From contig SBFT01000290.1 in assembly GCA_006227805.1 (NCBI GenBank), positions 1 through 27,511 of the forward strand: a DNA stretch of 27,511 bases. The letters run 5' to 3'. Below, in pieces: positions 10,108 through 21,392 of the stretch. The stretch is from Paracoccaceae bacterium (GTDB lineage: Bacteria > Pseudomonadota > Alphaproteobacteria > Rhodobacterales > Rhodobacteraceae). The notes below the pieces were generated by a model. The model was not told where the DNA came from. It ran no database searches and saw only the letters and a list, made by a program, of their open reading frames with translations. Position 1 is the stretch's first letter. Every line of letters begins with the position of its first letter. A program made the position numbers and the translations under genes.

Positions 10108-11240
10108 TGACATCCTATCTCGATCTCCCGTTCGACATCGACACCATGCTGGCGGGCCTGCGCCCCTGGATCGAATGCGAAAGCCCCACCTTCGACGCCG
10201 CCGCCGTCAACCGCATGATGAGCCTCGCGTCCTATGATCTGTCCCAACTGGGCACGGTCGAACGCATCCCTGGCCGCATGGGCTTCGGCGACAGCCTGCG
10301 CGTGCGCCTGCCCCATCCCCATGCGGGCCAGCCCGGCATCCTGATCGCGGGGCACATGGACACGGTCCATCCCGTGGGCACGCTGGCCAGGCTGCCCTTC
10401 CGGCGCGACGGCGACGTCTGCTATGGCCCCGGCATCCAGGACATGAAGGGCGGCAATTTCTGCGCGGTCGAGGCCCTGCGCCAGCTGGCCCGCGCGGGGA
10501 TGCAGACCCCCCTGCCCGTCACGATCCTGTTCACGCCGGACGAGGAGGTGGGCACGCCCTCGACCCGCGAACTGATCGAGGCCGAGGCCGCGCGCAACCG
10601 CTACGTGCTGATCCCCGAACCCGCCATGCCGGACGGAGGCGTGGTGATCGGGCGCTATGCGATCGCGCGCTTCAACCTGCGCACCATCGGACGGCCCAGC
10701 CATGCCGGCGCGCGGCCGGGCGACGGCCGCTCGGCGATCGCCGCGATGGCCAGGCGCATCCTTCAGATCGAGGCGATGACCGGCCCCGACTGCACCTTCA
10801 GCGTGGGCGTGATCCATGCCGGGCAATGGGTGAACTGCGTCTCCTCCAGCTGCGAGGCCGAGGCGCTCAGCATGGCCAAGCGGCAGGAGGACCTGGACGA
10901 CGGCGTGGCGCGGATGCTGGCCCTGTCGGGCGAGGCGGACGAGGTCGTCTTCGAGGTGACGCGCGGCGTGACGCGGCCTGTCTGGCAACCCGACCAGCCC
11001 GGCACGATGCAGATGTATGCGCTTGCGCGCGAGATCGCGGGCGAGATCGGCTTCGATCTGTCCTGCGGCAGCGCGGGCGGCGGCTCGGACGGGAACTTCA
11101 CCGGGGCGATGGGGATTCCGACGCTCGATTCGCTGGGCGTGCGCGGGCGCGGCCTGCACACCCTGACCGAGAACATCGACGTCGCCAGCCTGCCGGAACG
11201 GGCCCGCCTGATGGCCGGGCTGATGATGCGGCTGGGCTGA
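10107..11240 (+). CDS. M20 family peptidase, glutamate carboxypeptidase (CPG2)-like
   Basis: GHMDTV, GPGIQDMKGG, PDEEVG, PEP, GRPSHAG, GGGSDGNF, GRGLH. ATG 10107 overlaps the upstream TGA (TGATG). No signal peptide. Confidence 0.88.
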   Translation: MTSYLDLPFDIDTMLAGLRPWIECESPTFDAAAVNRMMSLASYDLSQLGTVERIPGRMGFGDSLRVRLPHPHAGQPGILIAGHMDTVHPVGTLARLPFRRDGDVCYGPGIQDMKGGNFCAVEALRQLARAGMQTPLPVTILFTPDEEVGTPSTRELIEAEAARNRYVLIPEPAMPDGGVVIGRYAIARFNLRTIGRPSHAGARPGDGRSAIAAMARRILQIEAMTGPDCTFSVGVIHAGQWVNCVSSSCEAEALSMAKRQEDLDDGVARMLALSGEADEVVFEVTRGVTRPVWQPDQPGTMQMYALAREIAGEIGFDLSCGSAGGGSDGNFTGAMGIPTLDSLGVRGRGLHTLTENIDVASLPERARLMAGLMMRLG

Positions 11241-11371
11241 AACGGCGCGGGCCGCGCCCCCGAAGCCGCCTTGAACTCCGGGGCCGGAAAGCGTTTCATC
11301 CGCGCGACCTCGGCCCATGGCGCATGCCTTCGCCCCGGGGGACCCAGACCCTTTCCTAGAAGGATGTCCCC

Positions 11372-13663
11372 ATGAAATTCCGCTTTCCCATCATCATCAT
11401 CGACGAGGACTTCCGCTCGGAGAACTCCTCCGGCCTGGGCATCCGCGCCATGGCCAAGGCCATCGAGGACGAGGGCTTCGAAGTGGTGGGCGTCACCAGC
11501 TATGGCGACCTGTCGCAATTCGCCCAGCAGCAATCGCGCGCCAGCGCCTTCGTCCTGTCGATCGACGACGAGGAATTCACCCCCGGCCCCGATCTCGATC
11601 CGGCGGTGGTCAACCTGCGCAACTTCATCGAGGAAGTGCGCTGGAAGAACGCCGAGGTACCGATCTATGTCTATGGCGAGACCAAGACCAGCCGCCATCT
11701 GCCCAACGACATCCTGCGCGAGCTGCACGGCTTCATCCACATGTTCGAGGACACGCCGGAATTCGTCGCGCGCCACATCCTGCGCGAGGCGAAAAGCTAT
11801 ATCGAGAGCATCCAGCCCCCCTTCTTCAAGGCACTGGTCGATTATGCCGGGGACGGGTCCTATTCCTGGCATTGCCCGGGCCATTCCGGCGGCGTCGCCT
11901 TCCTGAAAAGCCCCGTGGGGCAGATGTATCACCAGTTCTACGGCGAGAACATGCTGCGCGCGGATGTCTGCAACTCGGTCGAGGAGCTGGGCCAGCTGCT
12001 CGACCACAACGGCGCCATCGGCGCCTCCGAACGCAACGCCGCGCGGATCTTCAACGCCGATCACTGCTTTTTCGTGACGAACGGGACCTCGACCTCGAAC
12101 AAGATGGTCTGGCACCACACGGTGGTCCCCGGCGACGTGGTGGTGGTGGACCGCAACTGCCACAAGTCGATCCTGCACTCGATCATCATGACCGGCGCGA
12201 TCCCGGTCTTCCTGAAGCCCACGCGCAACCATTACGGCATCATCGGCCCGATCCAGCAGCGTGAATTCGAGATCGAGACCATCCGCGAGAAGATCCGCCA
12301 GAACCCGCTTCTGGCCCATGTGGACGCCGACACGGTCAGGCCGCGCATCCTGGCGCTGACGCAATCGACCTATGACGGGGTGCTCTACAACACCGAGACG
12401 ATCAAGACCCTGCTCGACGGCCATGTCGAGAACCTGCATTTCGACGAGGCCTGGCTGCCGCACGCCGCCTTCCACCCCTTCTATGGCACCTATCACGCGA
12501 TGGGCCGCAAGCGCGCGCGCCCGCGCCAGTCGGTGACCTATGCCACCCAGTCGATCCACAAGCTGCTGGCCGGGATCAGCCAGGCCAGCCATATCCTGGT
12601 GCAGGACAGCCAGGAGACGAAACTGGACCGGCATCTCTTCAACGAAGCCTACCTGATGCACATCTCGACCAGTCCGCAATATTCGATCATCGCCAGCTGC
12701 GACGTGGCCGCCGCGATGATGGAGCCACCGGGCGGAACCGCGCTGGTCGAGGAAAGCCTGCTCGAGGCGATGGATTTCCGCCGCGCCATGCGCAAGGTCG
12801 AGGCTGAATACGGGGCCGAGGACTGGTGGTTCCGGGTCTGGGGCCCGGACGCGCCCGAGGAGGAAGGCATCGGCGAACAGCGCCCCTGGGTCCTGCGCCG
12901 CACCGATACCGACGGCATCCAGAAGGCCGACGGCAAGGAAAGCTGGCACGCCTTCGGCGACATGTCCCCGGGCTTCAACATGCTGGACCCGATCAAGGCG
13001 ACGCTGATCACGCCGGGCCTGCGCATCGACGGTCATTTCGAGGACACCGGCATCCCTGCCTCGATCGTGACCAAATACCTGGCCGAACATGGCGTGGTGG
13101 TCGAGAAGACCGGCCTCTACAGCTTCTTCATCATGTTCACGATCGGGATCACCAAGGGGCGCTGGAACACGCTTCTGGCGGACCTGCAGCAGTTCAAGGA
13201 CGATTACGCCAGGAACCAGCCGCTCTGGCGCTGCATGCCGGAATTCTGCGCCAGGCATCCCAGATACGAGAAGATGGGCCTGCGCGACCTGTGCCAGCAT
13301 GTGCACCGGCTTTACGCCAAATACGACGTCGCGATCCTGTCGACCGAGATGTATCTCAGCGACCTCACCCCGATGATGACGCCCAGCGAGGCCTATGCCC
13401 ACATCGCGCGGCGCAGCACGGAACGGGTGCCGATCGACGATCTGGAAGGCCGCGTCACGACCAGCCTGGTGACACCCTATCCCCCCGGCATTCCGCTTCT
13501 GGTTCCGGGCGAGGTCTTCAACCGCAGGATCGTGGACTACCTGAAGTTCAACCGCGAATTCGCGCGCGAATGCCCGGGCTTCGAGACCGACATTCACGGA
13601 TTGGTCCAGGAAACCGGCGCGGACGGCGTGGTGCGCTACTACGCCGATTGCGTCGCGGCCTGA
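11372..13663 (+). CDS. Fold-type I PLP-dependent lysine/ornithine/arginine decarboxylase with N-terminal wing (receiver-like) domain
   Basis: WHCPGHSGG, FVTNGTSTSNK, VDRNCHKS, TQSTYDG, HFDEAW, TQSIHKL (PLP lysine), STSPQY, PYPPGIPLLVPGE. SD-like AGAAGGA upstream. Substrate cannot be assigned from the sequence alone. Confidence 0.93.
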   Translation: MKFRFPIIIIDEDFRSENSSGLGIRAMAKAIEDEGFEVVGVTSYGDLSQFAQQQSRASAFVLSIDDEEFTPGPDLDPAVVNLRNFIEEVRWKNAEVPIYVYGETKTSRHLPNDILRELHGFIHMFEDTPEFVARHILREAKSYIESIQPPFFKALVDYAGDGSYSWHCPGHSGGVAFLKSPVGQMYHQFYGENMLRADVCNSVEELGQLLDHNGAIGASERNAARIFNADHCFFVTNGTSTSNKMVWHHTVVPGDVVVVDRNCHKSILHSIIMTGAIPVFLKPTRNHYGIIGPIQQREFEIETIREKIRQNPLLAHVDADTVRPRILALTQSTYDGVLYNTETIKTLLDGHVENLHFDEAWLPHAAFHPFYGTYHAMGRKRARPRQSVTYATQSIHKLLAGISQASHILVQDSQETKLDRHLFNEAYLMHISTSPQYSIIASCDVAAAMMEPPGGTALVEESLLEAMDFRRAMRKVEAEYGAEDWWFRVWGPDAPEEEGIGEQRPWVLRRTDTDGIQKADGKESWHAFGDMSPGFNMLDPIKATLITPGLRIDGHFEDTGIPASIVTKYLAEHGVVVEKTGLYSFFIMFTIGITKGRWNTLLADLQQFKDDYARNQPLWRCMPEFCARHPRYEKMGLRDLCQHVHRLYAKYDVAILSTEMYLSDLTPMMTPSEAYAHIARRSTERVPIDDLEGRVTTSLVTPYPPGIPLLVPGEVFNRRIVDYLKFNREFARECPGFETDIHGLVQETGADGVVRYYADCVAA

Positions 13664-13697
13664 GCCGCGCAAGCCGGGATCGCGGCGTGAGCCGCGC
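13653..13697. repeat. Tandem 18-bp near-identical repeat, each copy a hairpin, between converging genes
   Basis: TCGCGGCCTGAGCCGCGC (13653-13670) and TCGCGGCGTGAGCCGCGC (13680-13697), 17/18 identical. Each folds as CGCGGC-loop-GCCGCG. Confidence 0.7.
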
Positions 13698-13706
13698 GGC
13701 GCGCGA

Positions 13707-14042
13707 TCAGTCGCGCGGGTCCTGCGTGTCGAGCTGGGCATCCGCCTCGGCGATGCCCCAGGGCTTGATCCCCATGCGCAAGGCCGCGCGCCCGATCATG
13801 TGCGCCCCGATGGGTGCCGTCAGCAGCAGGAAGATCACGATCAGCACGCAACGCAGCACCACGCCCGCGTCGGCGAAATGCAGCGCCACGCCCGCCAGCA
13901 CCAGGCCCGATCCCAGCGTGCCGACCTTGGTGGCCGCGTGCATCCGGATGTAGACATCCGGCAGGCGAAAGACGCCGATCCCCGCCACGACGATGAAGAT
14001 CGCGCCCGAGAAGATCAGGAAAGCGGTCAGGGCCTCGATCAT
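13707..14042 (-). CDS. mrpG: Mrp/Pha/Mnh cation:H+ antiporter subunit G
   Basis: From ATG 14042: MIEALTAFLIFSG...GIGVFRLPDVYIRMHAATKVGTLG...FLLLTAPIGAHMIGRAA. ATGA overlap with mrpF. Confidence 0.93.
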   Translation of the reverse strand: MIEALTAFLIFSGAIFIVVAGIGVFRLPDVYIRMHAATKVGTLGSGLVLAGVALHFADAGVVLRCVLIVIFLLLTAPIGAHMIGRAALRMGIKPWGIAEADAQLDTQDPRD

Positions 14043-14338
14043 GGCTGGTTCTCCGCATCCTCGCGCCGCAGGACCTGGCGCTCGGCGAAGCGGGCCAGCG
14101 CGACGGTCGCCAGAAAGCCCACCAGGGCCAGCACCAACGCCACGTCGAGGAAGGTGGAATCCCCCGACCGGATCGCGGCCAGTCCGCAGAAGGCGACGAT
14201 GGCCACCGTCATCATGTCCAGCGCCACGATGCGGTCCGCCAGGCTGGGTCCGACGGCCAGGCGCCAGCCCGCGAAGGCGACCGAGGCGAAGACCGCGACG
14301 AAACCCAGCGTCACTGCCCAATACAGAAGCTCGGTCAT
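14039..14338 (-). CDS. mrpF: Mrp antiporter subunit F
   Basis: From ATG 14338: MTELLYWAV...RLAVGPSLADRIVALD...LDVALVLALVGFLATVALARF. ATGA overlap with mrpE. Confidence 0.93.
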   Translation of the reverse strand: MTELLYWAVTLGFVAVFASVAFAGWRLAVGPSLADRIVALDMMTVAIVAFCGLAAIRSGDSTFLDVALVLALVGFLATVALARFAERQVLRREDAENQP

Positions 14339-14820
14339 GTCCTGTCCTCCACGGCGTCGATCACCCATTTCTCCATCCCCGATTTCAGGGCGCGGGTCAC
14401 GGCCTCGGGGTCGTCCGCGAACATCGCGTGCACCTTCAGGGTCTTGCGGTCGGGGCTGACATCGATGCTCAGCGTGCCGGGCGTCAGCGAGATCAGGTTC
14501 GTCACCAGAAGGATGCCGGTATCGGTCTTCACGTCCAGCGGAACGTCGATGATCGCGGGCCGCGCGCGGTGGCGCGGCGTGACCACGTCCCAGAACACCT
14601 GGAAGCTCGACACGATCAGTTCGTAATGGAACAGCACGATCAGCTTCAGCCAGTACCAGACCCGCAGGAAATAGCTCGAGCGCGTGCCCGTCAGCGGCTG
14701 AAGCAGCCACAGCGTCACGTAGCCCACGACCAGTCCCGAGAGGACTGTCAGCCAGGTGAAGCCCCCGAAGAGCAGCGCCCAGGCGGCGGCCATGACCAGG
14801 TTTGCCGCGAAATGGCTCAT
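14335..14820 (-). CDS. mrpE: Mrp antiporter subunit E
   Basis: RPAIIDVPLD, NLISLTPGTLSIDVS, LKVHAM. ATGA overlap with mrpD. Confidence 0.94.
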   Translation of the reverse strand: MSHFAANLVMAAAWALLFGGFTWLTVLSGLVVGYVTLWLLQPLTGTRSSYFLRVWYWLKLIVLFHYELIVSSFQVFWDVVTPRHRARPAIIDVPLDVKTDTGILLVTNLISLTPGTLSIDVSPDRKTLKVHAMFADDPEAVTRALKSGMEKWVIDAVEDRT

Positions 14821-16316
14821 GCGTCACCTCCCAGAACGGCGGCCAGATAGGCGCTGGGATCCAGAAGCTGGGCCGCCGCGCGTTCGGCGAAGACGACGAA
14901 GGGTTCCGGGAAGAAGCCGATCACCAGCGTCAGGGCCGCCAGCGCCGCGATGGGCAGGAGAAGCGGCCGCATCTGCGCGCGCGGCACGCGCGACATCACG
15001 GGATCGATCCCCTCGGGATGGGCCTTCCAGAACGCCTCGGCCCAGATCTTGGTCATCGAGTAGATCGTCAGAAGGCCCACGACCAGCGCGACGCCCGCAA
15101 GGACCCAGGCCTCGACCTCGAGCGAGGCCGCGACCAGCACGTATTTCGCCCAGAAGCCCGACAGCGGCGGAAAGCCCGCCAGCGAAAAGGCCGGGATCAG
15201 GAACAGGACGGCCAGCAGGGGCGCGGACTTGTAGAGGCCCCCGATCTTCGGCAACTCGGTCGATCCGGTCAGGCGTTCGACCACGCCGCCGACCAGGAAC
15301 AGGTTCGCCTTCACGATGATGTGGTGGACCAGGTAGAAGACCGCGCCCGCCACCGCCAGAGGCGTCAGCAGCGCCAGGCCCAGGATCATGTAGCCGATCT
15401 GGCTGACGATGTGGAAGGACAGGATCTTGCGGATGTCGTTCTGCGCCGCCGCCCCAAGGACGCCCGTGATCATCGTCAGCGCCGCCACCCAGAGAAGGAT
15501 GTCATGGGTGAAGCCCACGTCGCCGTTGAAGACCAGCGTGAACATCCGGATCAGCGCATAGACGCCCACCTTGGTCAGCAGGCCGGCGAAGACCGCCGAG
15601 ACCGAGAAGGCCGGCGTGTGATAGGCGGCGGGCAGCCAGAAGAACAGCGGAAAGACCGCCGCCTTCACCCCGAAGGCGATCATGAACATCACCGCGACGA
15701 CCGTGACCAGCCCCTGGTTTTCCAGCTGCGGCACCGTGCGCGCCAGGTCCGCCATGTTCAGCGTGCCCGTCATGCCATAGAGCAGGCCCACCCCGGCCAG
15801 GAACAGGATGGTCGAGATCAGGTTCAGCGTGACGTATTTCACCCCCCCGTCGATCTGTTCGCGCCGCCCGCCCAGGACCAGAAGCCCGAAGGACGAGATC
15901 AGCATGACCTCGAACCAGACATAGAGGTTGAAGAGGTCGCCCGTCAGGAACGCGCCGACGACGCCGCCGATCAGCACGTTGAACAGCGCGTGATAGCCCA
16001 GATACTCGGCCCGCTCGCCGATGTCGGACAAGGCATAGACCGACACCGCCAGCGCCGTGATCGCGGTGATCACGACCATGACCGCGCCCAGCAGATCGGC
16101 CACCAGCGTGATCCCGAAGGGCGCGGCCCATTGGCCCATCTGCCCCGCGATCACGCCCTCGCGCAGCACCTGCTGCATCAGCGCGGCTGCGGCCAGCAAC
16201 AGAAGGACATTGCCGCCCACGCTGATCCAGCGCCCGGCCGGTCCCATGCGCAACAGGAAGGACAGCACCGCCGTCAGGAAGGGCAGCACCAGCGGTGTAG
16301 CAAGATACCAGCTCAC
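14817..16316 (-). CDS. mrpD: Mrp antiporter subunit D
   Basis: GTG start. LTGDLFNLYVWFEVML, FGVKAAVFPLFFWLPAAY, LLTKVGVYA, KILSFHIVSQIG, GFPPLSGFWAK. Confidence 0.95.
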   Translation of the reverse strand: MSWYLATPLVLPFLTAVLSFLLRMGPAGRWISVGGNVLLLLAAAALMQQVLREGVIAGQMGQWAAPFGITLVADLLGAVMVVITAITALAVSVYALSDIGERAEYLGYHALFNVLIGGVVGAFLTGDLFNLYVWFEVMLISSFGLLVLGGRREQIDGGVKYVTLNLISTILFLAGVGLLYGMTGTLNMADLARTVPQLENQGLVTVVAVMFMIAFGVKAAVFPLFFWLPAAYHTPAFSVSAVFAGLLTKVGVYALIRMFTLVFNGDVGFTHDILLWVAALTMITGVLGAAAQNDIRKILSFHIVSQIGYMILGLALLTPLAVAGAVFYLVHHIIVKANLFLVGGVVERLTGSTELPKIGGLYKSAPLLAVLFLIPAFSLAGFPPLSGFWAKYVLVAASLEVEAWVLAGVALVVGLLTIYSMTKIWAEAFWKAHPEGIDPVMSRVPRAQMRPLLLPIAALAALTLVIGFFPEPFVVFAERAAAQLLDPSAYLAAVLGGDA

Positions 16317-16678
16317 GTCCGGGCATCCTCGCGCGGTTCGGCGACGCGCATCTCGTCGCTGTTGAGGGTCCCGAGCGAGGTATAGGCGCGGAACACCAGC
16401 ACCAGGGCGAAGGCGAAGAGACCGAAGCCGATCACGATGGCCGTCAGCACCAGCGCCTGCGGCAGCGCGTTCGCGACGGTCCCGACCGGCGCGTCGAGGC
16501 CTTCCGGGACCAGGGGCGGCTTGCCTTCGGTCAGGCGTCCGGCGGTGAAGATCGTCAGGTTGGCGGCGTTCGAGATCAGCACCAGCCCGAAGATGAAGCG
16601 CAGCACGTTGCGCGCCAGCATCAGGTAGACCGAGGCCGCGACCAGCACGCCGATGGTGATGGCGAGAAGGGCTTCCAT
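16313..16678 (-). CDS. mrpC: Mrp antiporter subunit C
   Basis: From ATG 16678: MEALLAITIG...YLMLARN...LISNAANL...ANALPQALVLTAIVIGFG. Confidence 0.94.
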   Translation of the reverse strand: MEALLAITIGVLVAASVYLMLARNVLRFIFGLVLISNAANLTIFTAGRLTEGKPPLVPEGLDAPVGTVANALPQALVLTAIVIGFGLFAFALVLVFRAYTSLGTLNSDEMRVAEPREDART

Positions 16679-17097
16679 CAGATCTCCTCCTCCATCGCGA
16701 AGACCAGTGTCAGAACCGATCCGAACACGACGAGGTAGACCCCGATGTCGAAGACGAGGACCGTGGACAGCGGCAGGCCCTTGTCCGTCTCGGTGGCCCC
16801 CAGGAACAGCCATTGCCCGGTGAACAGCGCGTCCCCGAAGAGCGCGGCCGCGATCCCCGCCAGAAGCGCGATGCCAAGGCCCGCGACGGCGATGTTCTGC
16901 GGCAGGACACGCAAGGCGCGGCGCGCGTCCCCGGTGCCGCAGGCGATGGCATAGAGGACAAAGCCGGTCGACCCGATCAGGCCGCCGATGAAACCGCCGC
17001 CCGGCTCGTTGTGGCCGCGCAGCAGCATGTAGACCGAGAACAGCAGCAACAGCCCCGACAAGGCCCGCGTGCCGGCCTGCAGGATCACGGAATTCAC
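16678..17097 (-). CDS. mrpB: Mrp antiporter subunit B
   Basis: From GTG 17097 (GTGA overlap with the mrpA stop): NSVILQAGTR...LRGHNEPGGGFIGGL...FDIGVYLVVFG. Confidence 0.92.
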   Translation of the reverse strand: MNSVILQAGTRALSGLLLLFSVYMLLRGHNEPGGGFIGGLIGSTGFVLYAIACGTGDARRALRVLPQNIAVAGLGIALLAGIAAALFGDALFTGQWLFLGATETDKGLPLSTVLVFDIGVYLVVFGSVLTLVFAMEEEI

Positions 17098-19397
17098 GAT
17101 GCATCCTCCCCTTTGCGGGTCCGGCTCGAACGGCCCGTCGGCCCCTGGTCGGTGGTGCGCAAGAGCGCATAGGCCGCCAGCGCCGCGATCACGACAACCG
17201 CGATCTCGCCGAAGGTGTCGAGCGCCCTGAAATCGACCAGGATCACGTTGACGATGTTGCGTCCGAAAGCCTCGGGCCAGGAGGTGACCTCGAAGTAATC
17301 GGTCAGGCGGCGATCCATCGGCACTTCCAGGACGGCCAGCAGGGTCAATGTGACCACCGCGCCCACCGCCAGGCCCAGAAGCGCGTCGCGCGGACGCCAG
17401 TCGCGCGTTCCCGCAGGGTCGAGCGCGGGCAGGCGCAGAAGCGCAACCGCGACCAGCACGACGACCAGCGTCTCGACCAGAAGCTGGGTGATCGCGACGT
17501 CGGGCGCACCGAAGACGATGAAGATCATCGCGACGCCGATGCCCACGACGCCGAGGCTGGCCATCGCGGTGATCCGCGACCCCGTCAGCGCCGCCATCAC
17601 CGCGCCGGCCATGATCAGCACCGCCAGCGCCAGGTTCTTCCAGGTCACCGAGGACATGTCCGGCAGTCCCGGCAGCGCATCGCGCGCCAGCATCGTGCCG
17701 CCAAGGCCGACAAGGACCGTCAGGAACGTCACCAGGATGTAGATGCGCAATTCGCCCGATTGCAGGACGCGCGTCTGCCAGGCGGCCAGCCCCTTCAGAC
17801 CCTCGAGGAAGCGGTCCCAGCCATTGTCGAAGTTCGGCGCGGCTAGTTCTGCCCGGGCGAGCGCGGCACGCAGGCGCACATGGCCAAGGTAGATCGCCAG
17901 GCCCAGCGCCACGGTGGCGATGGACAGGATCAGCGGCATGTTCACGCCGGCCCAGAGCTTGAGGTCCTTCGCGTCCTCGGCCGACCCCAGCAGCGACGCC
18001 ACCGTCGGCGCGATCAGCGTGTCCTGAAGAAGGGCGGGAAAGACGCCGAAGACAACGCCCAGCACCGCCAGGATGACCGGACCCGCCAGCATCTGCCAGG
18101 GCGCCTCGTGCGGGGTGTGGGGCATCGCGCCGCCCGCGGGACGCCAGAAGGGCCGGAACGCGACCACGCCCGCCACCGCCAGCATCAGCGCATTGGCGAT
18201 CACCAGCGCGCCCACGACCAGCGCGGGCCCGGACCCCGCCTCGAGCGCGCCCGCGTAGAGAAGCTCCTTCCCGATGAAGCCCAGGAAGGGCGGGAAACCC
18301 GCCATCGACAGGGACGCCAGCGCCGCGGCCAGCGCGGTGAAGGGCATCGCGCGGGCCAGCCCGCCCAGGATGTCCGCCTCGCGCGTGCCGGTGCCGTGGT
18401 CGATGCAGCCCACCACCAGGAACAGCCCCGCCTTGTAGAGCGAATGGACGATCAGGAAGGTCGCGAAGGCGGTCATCGCGTAGCCGGACTCCTGGCCCAG
18501 GAACAGCGTCAGCGTGCCCAGCGCCATCAGCGTCGTATAGGCCAGCGCCTGTTTCAGATCGCTCTGGCGCAGGGCAAGGACGCTGGCGAAGACGGCGGTG
18601 AAGCCCCCGGCGATGGTCAGCGTCCACATCCAGACATCGGTGCCCGCGAACCCCGGATGCAGCCGTGCCATCAGGTAGACGCCCGCCTTCACCATGGTGG
18701 CGGAATGGAGGAAGGCCGACACGGGCGTGGGCGCGGCCATCGCGTTGGGCAGCCAGAAATGGAACGGGAACTGCGCGGATTTCGTGAAGGTGCCCGCCAG
18801 AATCAGGATCAGGATCGGCAGGTAGAGCGCATGGGCCTTCAGCGCGTCACCCTGTGCCAGGATCACCGACAATTCGAAACTGCCCGCGACCATGCCCAGA
18901 AGGATGAACCCCGCCAGCAGCGCCAGCGCCCCGGCGCCGGTGACGAAGAGCGCCTGCAAGGCGGAACGGCGGCCCTTGTAGGTCTCGTGCCCGAAACCGA
19001 TCAGCAGGTAGGAGGTGATCGTCGTCAGTTCCCAGAACACGAACAGCGCGATCAGGTTGTCGGCCAGCACCAGCCCCAGCATCGACAGCATGAAGCCGGC
19101 CAGGAACAGGGCAAAGCGCGCGAATTGCGGATGCCCCGCCAGGTAGGTGTTGGAATAGAGAAACACCAGCGCGCCGATCCCGCTGATCAGCAGTGCGAAG
19201 GTCAGGCTGAGACCGTCGACCAGGAACGACAGCGAGATGCCCAGCGACGGCACCCAGTCCCATTGCAGGCGCAGCACCTCGCCCGCCGAGACGGCGGGCA
19301 GAAAGCCCAGGAACCAGACGAAAAGCCCGGCGGCCAGACCCACCGGAGCCAGGCCCACCAGCCCGTTCCCCTTCGCCTGCGCTGCGGTCTCACTCAT
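17094..19397 (-). CDS. mrpA: Mrp antiporter subunit A (separate from MrpB; group 1 arrangement)
   Basis: From ATG 19397 (ATGA overlap with usp). VFWELTTITSYLLIG, TKSAQFPFHFWLPNAMAAPTPVSAFLHSATMVKAG, GAPDVAITQLLVE, GRNIVNVILVDFRALDTFGE. Confidence 0.95.
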   Translation of the reverse strand: MSETAAQAKGNGLVGLAPVGLAAGLFVWFLGFLPAVSAGEVLRLQWDWVPSLGISLSFLVDGLSLTFALLISGIGALVFLYSNTYLAGHPQFARFALFLAGFMLSMLGLVLADNLIALFVFWELTTITSYLLIGFGHETYKGRRSALQALFVTGAGALALLAGFILLGMVAGSFELSVILAQGDALKAHALYLPILILILAGTFTKSAQFPFHFWLPNAMAAPTPVSAFLHSATMVKAGVYLMARLHPGFAGTDVWMWTLTIAGGFTAVFASVLALRQSDLKQALAYTTLMALGTLTLFLGQESGYAMTAFATFLIVHSLYKAGLFLVVGCIDHGTGTREADILGGLARAMPFTALAAALASLSMAGFPPFLGFIGKELLYAGALEAGSGPALVVGALVIANALMLAVAGVVAFRPFWRPAGGAMPHTPHEAPWQMLAGPVILAVLGVVFGVFPALLQDTLIAPTVASLLGSAEDAKDLKLWAGVNMPLILSIATVALGLAIYLGHVRLRAALARAELAAPNFDNGWDRFLEGLKGLAAWQTRVLQSGELRIYILVTFLTVLVGLGGTMLARDALPGLPDMSSVTWKNLALAVLIMAGAVMAALTGSRITAMASLGVVGIGVAMIFIVFGAPDVAITQLLVETLVVVLVAVALLRLPALDPAGTRDWRPRDALLGLAVGAVVTLTLLAVLEVPMDRRLTDYFEVTSWPEAFGRNIVNVILVDFRALDTFGEIAVVVIAALAAYALLRTTDQGPTGRSSRTRKGEDAS

Positions 19398-20359
19398 GCC
19401 TTCGTGCCCTCGGCCAGCTGGACCGGGCTGACGAAGCCCCTGGGCTTGACCGTCAGCACCGAACAATCAAGACGGTTCAACACGGTTTCGGCCGTATTGC
19501 CGATGAAGAGACCGGCAATTCCCGTCCGTGCCAGCGTGCCCATGACAAGCGTGTCGATCCTTTCGCGATCCGCATGTTCGATCAGAACATCGGCCGGAAC
19601 GCCCTTGACGTGAAGCACGCGCGTGTTCTGGGCGAAAGCGGTGAAATCGTCCATCAGCTTTTTCAGGCCCGAGGCACTGTCCCGCTCGCATTTGTCGAGG
19701 ATTGCCTGAATTTCGGGCTCGGGCATGTTCACGAAGGAATGCCGCAGGGTCTGTTCCTCTTCCAGCTGCCAGGCATTGACCACGTCCAGACGGGCGCCAT
19801 CGTGCACGCAAAGCGAGGTGGCCAGTTCCATCACCATGTGATTGAGGCCATCGCGGACAGGGTCCGAGGGGTCGGGATCGACCGCGGCCATGATGCGCCT
19901 GGCGTTCGGTTCGGTCGTGCTGTTGAGCAGCCAGACAGGGCATGGGCACTTGCGCAGAAGATGCAGGTCGGGGCCGCGCAGGGTCCGGCTTTCGGGCGTG
20001 CGCTGTGCTCCCTTCAGGACAAGATCGTGACCGTTGGCCAGAACCGCGCGGATCGTCTCGATGAACCCCACGCCCTGAAACACTTGCGTGCGGACGTTCA
20101 GACCCTCGCTGCGCAGGGGCTCGGCCAGGGTGTCCAGGCGATCGGCGTGAAACCCGATCACGCGATCCTCGACCTCGCGCGCACGCATCCCGGGCAGCGC
20201 CGAGAAGAGCCGGGCGAAATCACCCGGGGCGGTGTCGATGATGTCGACCAGCGTCAGCGTCGCGCCATTGGCCTCGGCCAGCCAGCGGGCGCGCGCGAAC
20301 AGCGCGTCGGTGGCGCTGGCCGCATCCGCCACCACCAGGATGTTCCTGAACCTGTTCAT
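19394..20359 (-). CDS. Tandem-domain universal stress protein (UspE-like)
   Basis: From ATG 20359: MNRFRNILVV; HDLVLKG...DLHLLRKCPCPVWL; IMAAVD; IDTLVMGTLARTGIAGLFIGNTAETVLNRLDCSVLTVKP. Confidence 0.92.
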   Translation of the reverse strand: MNRFRNILVVADAASATDALFARARWLAEANGATLTLVDIIDTAPGDFARLFSALPGMRAREVEDRVIGFHADRLDTLAEPLRSEGLNVRTQVFQGVGFIETIRAVLANGHDLVLKGAQRTPESRTLRGPDLHLLRKCPCPVWLLNSTTEPNARRIMAAVDPDPSDPVRDGLNHMVMELATSLCVHDGARLDVVNAWQLEEEQTLRHSFVNMPEPEIQAILDKCERDSASGLKKLMDDFTAFAQNTRVLHVKGVPADVLIEHADRERIDTLVMGTLARTGIAGLFIGNTAETVLNRLDCSVLTVKPRGFVSPVQLAEGTKA

Positions 20360-20387
20360 CAGCCGCCCCCCGTTTTCGTTCCAGATC

Positions 20388-20416
20388 AGATAGGGTCGCA
20401 TCCCTTATTGATCCAA
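20388..20416 (-). promoter_or_regulatory. Candidate promoter for the usp-mrpABCDEFG operon
   Basis: Minus strand TTGGAT, 17 nt, CTATCT, resembling alphaproteobacterial TTG...CTATAT/CTATCT promoters. Predicted +1 near 20381, about 22 nt before the usp ATG. Confidence 0.45.
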
Positions 20417-20432
20417 TCGAAAAAGGAAGTAT

Positions 20433-20457
20433 TTTCGATAGAAATCCTCTATCGAAA
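20433..20457. promoter_or_regulatory. LysR/OxyR-type operator (ATAG-N7-CTAT core)
   Basis: Perfect 9-bp inverted repeat TTTCGATAG-aaatcct-CTATCGAAA. It contains the T-N11-A LysR box and the OxyR ATAG-N7-CTAT unit, and lies between the divergent usp and lysR starts. Confidence 0.8.
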
Positions 20458-20471
20458 CCCCCAGAGCCCCC

Positions 20472-21392
20472 ATGCCGACGCTCCAGCAACTCCGATATCT
20501 CGTCGCTGTGGACGATACCCTGCATTTCCGCCGCGCCGCCGAGGCCTGCCATGTCACGCAACCCACGCTCAGCGCCCAGATCAAGGACCTGGAAAGCAAG
20601 CTGGGTGCGGTGCTTGTCGAACGAAGCCGCGCGCGGGTGGTGATGACGCCCCTGGGCGCGGCGGTCGCCGATCATGCCAGACGCGCCCTGCGCGAGGTGG
20701 ACGAGATCCGCAACCTCTCGGTCCTGAACGGCGGCACGCTGCAAAGCACGATCAAGGTGGGCATCGTGCAATCGCTCGGGTCCTACCTTCTGCCGCTGAT
20801 CGTGCCCGACCTGCACCAGAGCCACCCCAAGCTGAAGCTTTATGTCCGCGAAGGCCTGCCGCATCACCTGACCGAGGCGCTGGCGACCGGCGCGGTCGAT
20901 CTTCTGCTGTTCCCGCTGCCGGTGCGGGGCGCGGAATACGACCAGCTGTCGCTGTTCCGCGAGCCGCTTCTTCTGGTGATCCCCCATGACCACCCCTTCG
21001 CCGCGCGCGACAACATCACGCCGGACCTGCTGAAGGGCGAGACGATCCTGGCGCTGGAACCGGGGCACAAGCTCTACGAGCAGGTGCGCGTGATCTGCGA
21101 CCAGTATGGCGCGCATCTGTCTCACGACTACGAAGGCACGTCGCTCGATACCCTGCGGCAGATGGTGGCGATGGGGATGGGCGTGTCGCTTCTGCCCGCG
21201 CTCTACGTCAAGTCCGAGGTCGCTCACCAGGACATCGTCGTCGCCCGCCGCTTCGAGGGGACGCCGCCCTCGCGCACGATCGGCATGGTCTGGCGGCAGG
21301 GCACGGTGCGCGAACAGGAATACCGCGATCTGGGGCGCGAGATCTGCGCGATCCTGAAGGCCGGCGCGCCGGAACTGACGATCCTGGGCTAG
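20472..21392 (+). CDS. LysR family regulator, OxyR-like but lacking the peroxidatic cysteine
   Basis: HTH LHFRRAAEACHVTQPTLSAQI, close to E. coli OxyR HFRRAADSCHVSQPTLSGQI. The sensing region reads LEPGHKLYEQVRVIC versus OxyR LEDGHCLRDQAMGFC. Also TSLDTLRQMV and RTIGMVWR. Confidence 0.92.
   Translation: MPTLQQLRYLVAVDDTLHFRRAAEACHVTQPTLSAQIKDLESKLGAVLVERSRARVVMTPLGAAVADHARRALREVDEIRNLSVLNGGTLQSTIKVGIVQSLGSYLLPLIVPDLHQSHPKLKLYVREGLPHHLTEALATGAVDLLLFPLPVRGAEYDQLSLFREPLLLVIPHDHPFAARDNITPDLLKGETILALEPGHKLYEQVRVICDQYGAHLSHDYEGTSLDTLRQMVAMGMGVSLLPALYVKSEVAHQDIVVARRFEGTPPSRTIGMVWRQGTVREQEYRDLGREICAILKAGAPELTILG

Follow-up and report, generated by a model that had tools for sequence, protein, structure and literature searches.

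A UspE-like universal stress protein gene heads a group-1 Mrp antiporter operon and may encode an optional accessory of monovalent-cation exporters

What does a gene for a universal stress protein (USP) do at the head of an operon for an Mrp antiporter? The question is raised by a 27,511-nucleotide stretch of DNA from a Paracoccaceae bacterium (contig SBFT01000290.1; the whole stretch is hereafter called the window), in which usp precedes mrpABCDEFG. The original prediction had proposed that this USP is a soluble eighth, regulatory partner that gates Mrp by energy or nucleotide status. Our comparative analysis speaks for a specific link in function between this USP and Mrp; the pairing is real and conserved, and probably functional. 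As to the nature of the link, we give even chances to a reading in which USP is a portable, optional cytoplasmic accessory of monovalent-cation exporters that docks near MrpG and MrpE and tunes antiport.

The usp and mrp genes are eight contiguous genes that run from 20359 to 13707 on the minus strand with no intergenic space, all of them in frame and free of internal stops. Specifically, usp (19394-20359) encodes a tandem USP of the UspE family with 321 amino acids (aa; PF00582), and is followed by mrpA (17094-19397; 767 aa), mrpB (16678-17097; 139 aa), mrpC (16313-16678; 121 aa), mrpD (14817-16316; 499 aa), mrpE (14335-14820; 161 aa), mrpF (14039-14338; 99 aa) and the last cistron, mrpG (13707-14042; 111 aa). 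All seven junctions had been described as 4-nucleotide (nt) start/stop overlaps, which is correct for six of them (ATGA at usp/mrpA, mrpD/mrpE, mrpE/mrpF and mrpF/mrpG; GTGA at mrpA/mrpB and mrpC/mrpD) and incorrect for mrpB/mrpC, where the junction is TGATG, a 1-nt overlap. The usp/mrpA overlap reads ATGA at 19394-19397 on the minus strand, just as described, and is as tight as the junctions between core subunits. Translational coupling of the two genes is possible, since the stop of usp and the start of mrpA overlap. In addition, a purine-rich, Shine-Dalgarno-like run stands before every start in the unit, inside the preceding gene. For a background we applied a crude open reading frame (ORF) caller to the window's own genome, a 2.75-Mb metagenome-assembled genome that is 74% complete; among its 935 same-strand neighbour pairs, a 4-nt overlap is possible in 45 and TGATG in 11. 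Six 4-nt overlaps and one TGATG in a row far exceed this background, indicating a tightly coupled multi-subunit operon. The usp start at 20359 is supported by the conservation of Met1, Phe4 and Leu8, each at least 90% conserved among 59 homologues. usp is the genuine first cistron of an eight-gene usp-mrpABCDEFG operon.

The rest of the operon, by gene content, is an ordinary complete group-1 Mrp operon, with mrpA to mrpG in order and mrpA and mrpB separate. All seven subunits are recognized by Pfam, and MrpA, MrpB, MrpC, MrpD and MrpG also score above NCBIfam equivalog or subfamily cut-offs. MrpA (NF009287, 967 bits, cut-off 937) is of the group-1 type and contains the Pfam domains Proton_antipo_M, Proton_antipo_N, MbhD and MbhE. 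The other assignments are MrpB (NF009163, 154 bits, cut-off 148; PF04039), MrpC (NF009301, 187.6 bits, cut-off 156; PF00420), MrpD (NF009306, 582 bits, cut-off 542; PF00361), MrpE (PF01899, 139.8 bits), MrpF (PF04066, 68.3 bits) and MrpG (NF009314, 127.5 bits, cut-off 102; PF03334). In this respect the operon resembles the canonical group-1 Mrp operons of Bacillus, Anoxybacillus and Dietzia, for which no USP has been described. The premise that canonical Mrp consists of six to seven membrane subunits and includes no USP agrees with published operons and structures, in which the words 'universal stress' do not occur (PMC7419157, PMC8415708).

The arrangement recurs across the family. In an unbiased sample of 151 genera, one genome each and the window's own included, 26 genomes carry an orthologous group-1 operon, taken as one whose MrpA is at least 49% identical; most of the others have only a fused-AB group-2 mrp operon. 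usp lies directly upstream of mrpA in 11 of the 26, always accompanied by a divergent LysR gene, the counterpart of which in the window lies at 20472-21392 on the plus strand. Viewed from the protein, every one of the 11 USP matches of at least 42% identity sits upstream of mrpA, and six weaker paralogues lie elsewhere. Of the 28 loci at which usp stands immediately before mrpA, 13 show the 4-nt overlap, two TGATG and three tiny gaps, while spacers of 30-93 nt occur at the others; predicted co-transcription of usp and mrpA is conserved, and strict overlap is conserved only in closer relatives. In the USP tree, a single clade unites the alphaproteobacterial USPs linked to Mrp; it has a Shimodaira-Hasegawa-like approximate likelihood ratio (SH-aLRT) support of 99 and covers Rhodobacteraceae, Denitrobaculum, Pelagibius, Methyloligellaceae and one Rhodospirillales genome.

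The association extends far beyond the Alphaproteobacteria and beyond Mrp. We scanned one genome per species from 185,579 species, found 589 relatives that share RKCPCP[VL]W, and kept the 80 closest, picked by sequence and not by context. A monovalent-cation transporter gene lies within 2.5 kb of usp in 61 of these 80; six with full flanks have no such transporter, and in 13 the flanks are too short to judge. As a baseline, 1.4% of positions in the window's own genome are within the same reach of such a gene. The neighbours of the 61 are group-1 Mrp (25 loci), group-3 Mrp (16 loci), CPA antiporters, NhaA and P-type cation ATPases; the CPA1/CPA2 neighbours include KefC-like proteins with Na_H_Exchanger and TrkA domains in Pfam. 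In the group-3 operons of Gamma- and Zetaproteobacteria, Nitrospinaceae and Campylobacterales, usp lies inside the operon with spacers of 1-10 nt, in the order mrpE-usp-mrpF-mrpG-(MbhD/MbhE/MnhB)-mrpC-mrpD-mrpD-mrpD; operons of this E-F-G-B-C-D-D type with usp agree with group 3 as defined in the literature (PMC8415708; Pyrococcus mrpEFGBB'CD). Elsewhere usp follows mrpG (L089) or is divergent to mrpA (L118); a Caldilineaceae genome of the Chloroflexota has the order usp-CPA-mrpA-G (L069), and in a gammaproteobacterium with two chromosomes mrpA-G begins 660 nt after usp (L131). In other Alphaproteobacteria the LysR-usp pair accompanies NhaA (L030) or SbtA/SbtB plus NhaA (L032, L034), and at L031 usp is divergent to a P-type ATPase. 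USP-Mrp is one instance of a broader rule, apparently undescribed, in which a USP subfamily accompanies cation exporters.

The linkage belongs to a particular USP subfamily. In an unbiased sample of 401 Pseudomonadota genomes, MrpG occurs in 104 and a UspE-like gene in 59; the four USPs that reach at least 36% identity with the query all adjoin Mrp or CPA2, and canonical UspE genes (at most 30% identity) show no cation-transporter linkage in the same sample. Since canonical UspE is unlinked, transporter linkage is a property of the subfamily and not of UspE overall. Canonical UspE-like genes of six gammaproteobacterial genomes (L137, L139, L141, L143, L144 and L145) do have P-type ATPase matches about 2-3 kb away; we did not count these as linkage, as the matches are 24-30% identical, probably belong to a different ATPase class, and stand beside a different USP subfamily.

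Gene fusions bring USP and an Mrp subunit into one polypeptide. Two clusters of longer MrpG relatives, P0127 (421 aa) and P0128 (412 aa), carry USP sequence fused to an MrpG domain that shares 53-54% identity with the MrpG of the window, and P0128 is the last gene of an mrpE-mrpF-mrpG::usp operon. The USP part of P0128 aligns with residues 108-308 of the window's USP (E=4e-6, 23% identity), the PVW and MGT..R landmarks included. The fusions surfaced only with MrpG as query; a search for longer proteins with USP as query returned only fusions of APC permease, EIIA and USP, and no Mrp fusion. Together with the mrpE-usp-mrpF order, the MrpG-USP fusions point to the cytoplasmic tip formed by MrpG and MrpE. 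MrpE's ferredoxin-like domain and parts of MrpG are exposed to the cytoplasm and form the area with the strongest negative charge, where cations probably enter (PMC7419157). A multimer prediction of USP with MrpE, MrpF and MrpG, with a separate alignment for each chain, gave a score of 0.00 and counts neither way. A physical link between USP and Mrp is probable on the evidence of gene order and fusion.

The protein itself is a tandem-type USP, with two USP alpha/beta domains in one chain. PF00582 matches it in two stretches (108.6 bits), and the NCBIfam UspE model NF008380 aligns over residues 1-316 of 321 with 146.6 bits, short of its cut-off of 227; judged by these matches, it is a relative of the UspE family and not the enterobacterial equivalog. 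Its sequence also finds the PDB entry of UspE, 5cb0 (E=1.7e-27). An AlphaFold2 model built from the 59 homologues has a mean predicted local distance difference test value (pLDDT) of 91 and a predicted template modelling score (pTM) of 0.89, and consists of two Rossmann-like halves that match tandem USPs over the full length. Specifically, the template modelling (TM) scores are 0.81/0.84 against 4r2k and 0.73-0.84 on the UspE proteins of Salmonella, E. coli and Proteus; PA1789, Rv2623 and TTHA0350 come next. The protein shares its fan-shaped tandem fold with UspE/YdaA of E. coli, Salmonella and Proteus (5cb0, 4r2j, 4r2k, 3olq, 4wy2), and also LLRKCP.PVW at the end of the N-terminal domain, GT.(G/A)RTG...GNTAE, a VKP..(F/Y)..PV tail, and a nucleotide loop that is flexible in the UspE crystal and in our model alike (residues 279-284, pLDDT below 50). 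However, the two are only 24-26% identical, and canonical UspE genes lie away from cation transporters whereas this subfamily is almost always beside them. The hallmarks of the subfamily are LLRKCPCPVW and MGTxxRTGIxGxxIGNTAE. We also considered the conserved cysteines C138, C140 and C299 as a special redox switch and rejected the idea, since CP(V/L) at the last strand is common among USP domains.

The C-terminal domain carries the residues G274-T-L-A277-x9-G287-N288. The original prediction had reported these residues correctly and called the motif degenerate; save for one Gly-to-Ala change, it is the motif of the UspE family. G-x2-G-x9-G-N is the ATP-binding motif of that family, and E. coli UspE, with G269-T-V-G272-x9-G282-N, has ATPase activity in vitro and a loop that is disordered in the crystal (PMC4750201). 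Among the 59 homologues, position 277 is A, G or S, and G274, G280, G283, G287, N288, T289, A290 and E291 are each at least 90% conserved.

From these observations a mechanism can be drawn. The operon would be transcribed from a control region shared with the divergent, OxyR-derived LysR regulator; the C-terminal USP domain would bind an adenine nucleotide in its G-x2-(G/A/S)-x9-G-N-T loop; USP would dock on the antiporter's cytoplasmic side, close to MrpG and to MrpE's ferredoxin-like domain; and the docked USP would tune antiport to the state of the cell, in the manner of TeaD on TeaABC or of the tandem USP-like domains of cation-chloride cotransporters (CCCs). USP would thus be an optional modulator and not a core subunit.

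A USP as accessory of a transporter is a kind already known, and usp resembles such a gene in its position, being encoded in a transporter operon, directly before mrpA at 28 loci and embedded in group-3 operons elsewhere. The closest functional analogy is TeaD of Halomonas elongata (3hgm), which is likewise encoded in a transporter operon. TeaD is a USP of the ATP-binding type that is reported to modulate the TRAP transporter TeaABC and is dispensable for transport. It differs in being single-domain, so that it matches only one domain of our model (TMq 0.38), and in that its partner is an osmolyte importer and its gene the last of the operon, whereas here the partner is a cation/proton antiporter and usp is the first gene. 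USP domains fused to CPA antiporters are recorded in domain databases. The potassium-chloride cotransporters KCC1-4 and a prokaryotic CCC (3g40) have a tandem USP-type cytoplasmic regulatory part, the fold of which is matched by our model; these domains are covalently attached to a monovalent-ion transporter and are only 10-12% identical, whereas USP here is a separate gene, fused to MrpG in P0127 and P0128. Rv2623 of Mycobacterium tuberculosis (3cis) is also a tandem USP with a fold matched by the model, and this ATP-binding protein is described as physically binding the cytoplasmic domain of the ABC transporter Rv1747 and regulating the transporter (PMC5549992). However, the USP subfamily of Rv2623 is another one (18-20% identity), and its binding relies on an FHA domain, a domain absent from Mrp.

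Several results weigh against USP as a docked accessory. usp is absent from 15 of the 26 group-1 operons of the family sample, and in seven of the 15 the LysR gene directly abuts mrpA. A tree of MrpA and MrpD nests operons without usp among operons with it (L005 beside L059, L018 beside L016) and forces at least eight changes of usp presence or absence on well-supported branches. The simplest history would be one gain of usp followed by repeated loss; such loss from intact mrp operons implies that Mrp works without USP. Moreover, a stoichiometric Mrp subunit would be encoded in all orthologous operons, and usp is not. In the phylum sample, a UspE-like gene stands beside mrp in only six of the 104 genomes with MrpG, so that, counted from Mrp, the pairing belongs to a minority. 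The partner transporters (Mrp, CPA, NhaA and P-type ATPase) are structurally unrelated, which argues against one conserved docking surface and fits co-regulation equally well. The MrpG-USP fusions are rare, being two clusters, and their USP part is only 23% identical to the window's USP. As to nucleotide binding, the second glycine of the motif is an alanine and the N-terminal domain has no G-x2-G-x9-G-N motif. The metal (Zn/Cd) site that UspE of E. coli and Salmonella has at His117/His119 is not conserved, with Gln and Thr aligned there, and the Proteus UspE structure (4wy2) holds a ligand resembling a lipid A precursor instead of ATP (PMC4750201). Of the proposed eighth partner, then, the functional link survives, through the orthologues at mrpA, the mrpE-usp-mrpF order and the fusions, and the idea of a permanent component specific to Mrp does not, as the USP is not confined to Mrp and has been lost repeatedly.

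A wider form of the accessory reading holds that prokaryotic exporters of monovalent cations, namely Mrp of groups 1 and 3, CPA antiporters, NhaA and Na+/K+-type P-type ATPases, have in the UspE-like subfamily a general, detachable gate on the cytoplasmic side, and that on Mrp its docking at MrpG/MrpE would couple Na+ extrusion to nucleotide status. We put this forward tentatively, as a possibility with the odds against it.

The main rival is plain co-regulation without contact. Here USP would be an independent stress protein that shares a promoter, and in many cases a transcript, with exporters, both being needed under salt or alkaline stress, and acts elsewhere, in UspE-like stress tolerance or in lipid or nucleotide metabolism. 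The unrelated structures of the neighbouring transporters and the repeated loss of usp from intact mrp operons suit this explanation, as do the 30-93-nt spacers that replace the overlap at eight of the 28 usp-mrpA loci, the LysR-usp pairs that lack a downstream transporter in the operon in some Alphaproteobacteria (as at L032 and L034, whose usp is a monocistronic gene convergent with sbtA-sbtB), and the pleiotropic stress phenotypes of E. coli UspE (PMC4750201, PMC8955013). Co-regulation leaves unexplained, however, why many phyla have usp inserted between mrpE and mrpF at a distance of 1-10 nt, why covalent MrpG-USP fusions exist, and why linkage is specific to this subfamily when canonical UspE has none. 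We judge it unlikely, yet deserving serious consideration.

A second rival makes the regulator the partner. The LysR-type gene, OxyR/CbbR-like (PF00126, PF03466), is divergent from usp across a 112-bp control region (20360-20471), which contains the inverted repeat TCGATAGA-N5-TCTATCGA, read directly from the sequence; its protein scores 245 bits against the OxyR model, under the cut-off of 329 bits. USP might sense a metabolite or nucleotide and feed back on this OxyR-derived regulator, or on transcription, and not on the antiporter. The divergent LysR-usp pair is indeed conserved across alphaproteobacterial orders; it is kept with NhaA (L030), SbtA/SbtB (L032, L034) and DabAB (L035), and also at L029, L057 and L061, where the contigs end before any transporter gene. 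However, outside the Alphaproteobacteria USP keeps its transporter neighbours without an adjacent LysR gene, and the regulator evidently needs no USP, since its gene abuts mrpA at seven of the 15 usp-less operons. This explanation is improbable.

The idea that USP is an obligate eighth structural subunit of this Mrp complex, or an assembly factor dedicated to it, could appeal to the place of usp as first cistron and to an overlap as tight as those of the core subunits; it is effectively excluded, given the 15 orthologous operons without usp, the nesting of usp-less operons among usp-bearing ones, solved Mrp complexes of seven subunits with no USP (PMC7419157), and the company the same subfamily keeps with single-subunit transporters; we assign it the smallest chance of all.

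Further features of these loci are recorded here. In several alphaproteobacterial loci a gene between usp and mrpA encodes a conserved protein, 240-297 aa long, that matches nothing in Pfam; these genes lie at L026:6619-7512 (minus strand), L059:9926-10711, L063:10138-10938, L058:9974-10693 and L005:3238-3963, and at L005, where usp is absent, the gene stands between the LysR gene and mrpA. L026, L060, L062, L063 and L065 share a further small ORF, about 70-90 aa long. The LysR-mrpA interval seems to be a slot for variable accessory genes. L018 (L018:7300-9000, genome G035) has a group-1 mrp operon with neither usp nor a LysR gene, and upstream of it lies about 1.7 kb of AT-rich, ORF-poor DNA with an apparent tRNA gene, which suggests an island or insertion context.

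Two tandem usp copies stand between mrpE and mrpF at L071:7784-9777, L111:7984-9975, L125:7914-9975 and L096:2736-4722. At L071, L096 and L111 the duplication is old, because the upstream copies group in one clade of the tree and the downstream copies in another; the two copies of L125 are each other's nearest relatives. At L069, a gene for a bacterial eRF1-like protein (baeRF family; L069:7816-8961) lies directly upstream of usp-CPA-mrpA-G. usp lies beside SbtA and the PII-like SbtB at L032:6506-7810 and L034:6666-7973, and beside DabB-DabA at L035:10059-14323, each time with a LysR-family gene adjacent, which hints that the usp-LysR module may be linked to Na+-coupled bicarbonate uptake.

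In the window, a scan of 13300-20700 found no promoter-like sites, and terminator-like matches there are at chance level (six against 4.2 expected). An Orn/Lys/Arg decarboxylase gene (11372-13663, plus strand) converges on mrpG. A 992-aa minus-strand ORF just past mrpG (10763-13741) was rejected as a shadow frame of this decarboxylase gene.

Our literature search found no paper that describes a usp gene in an mrp operon, and the structural and physiological Mrp literature searched names no regulator of Mrp activity, the structures showing only membrane subunits. In Geobacter anodireducens, eight consecutive locus tags are given for 'seven' Mrp subunits (PMC9070056), and this cluster may contain an extra gene. 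For the Mrp field, a conserved soluble partner gene makes regulation directly testable, and the MrpG fusions and the insertion between mrpE and mrpF back the hypothesis. Tateyamaria, Marivita, Roseicyclus and Aestuariibius, all cultured bacteria, carry the same usp-mrp arrangement, so that genetics is feasible. One large branch of the poorly understood USP superfamily gains a specific context, monovalent-cation export in many phyla, as well as a conceptual link with eukaryotic cation-chloride cotransporters and their USP-like regulatory domains. If the general cytoplasmic gate were true, USP would be the first post-translational regulator known for Mrp antiporters, and also a free-standing counterpart, in bacteria, of those cotransporter domains.

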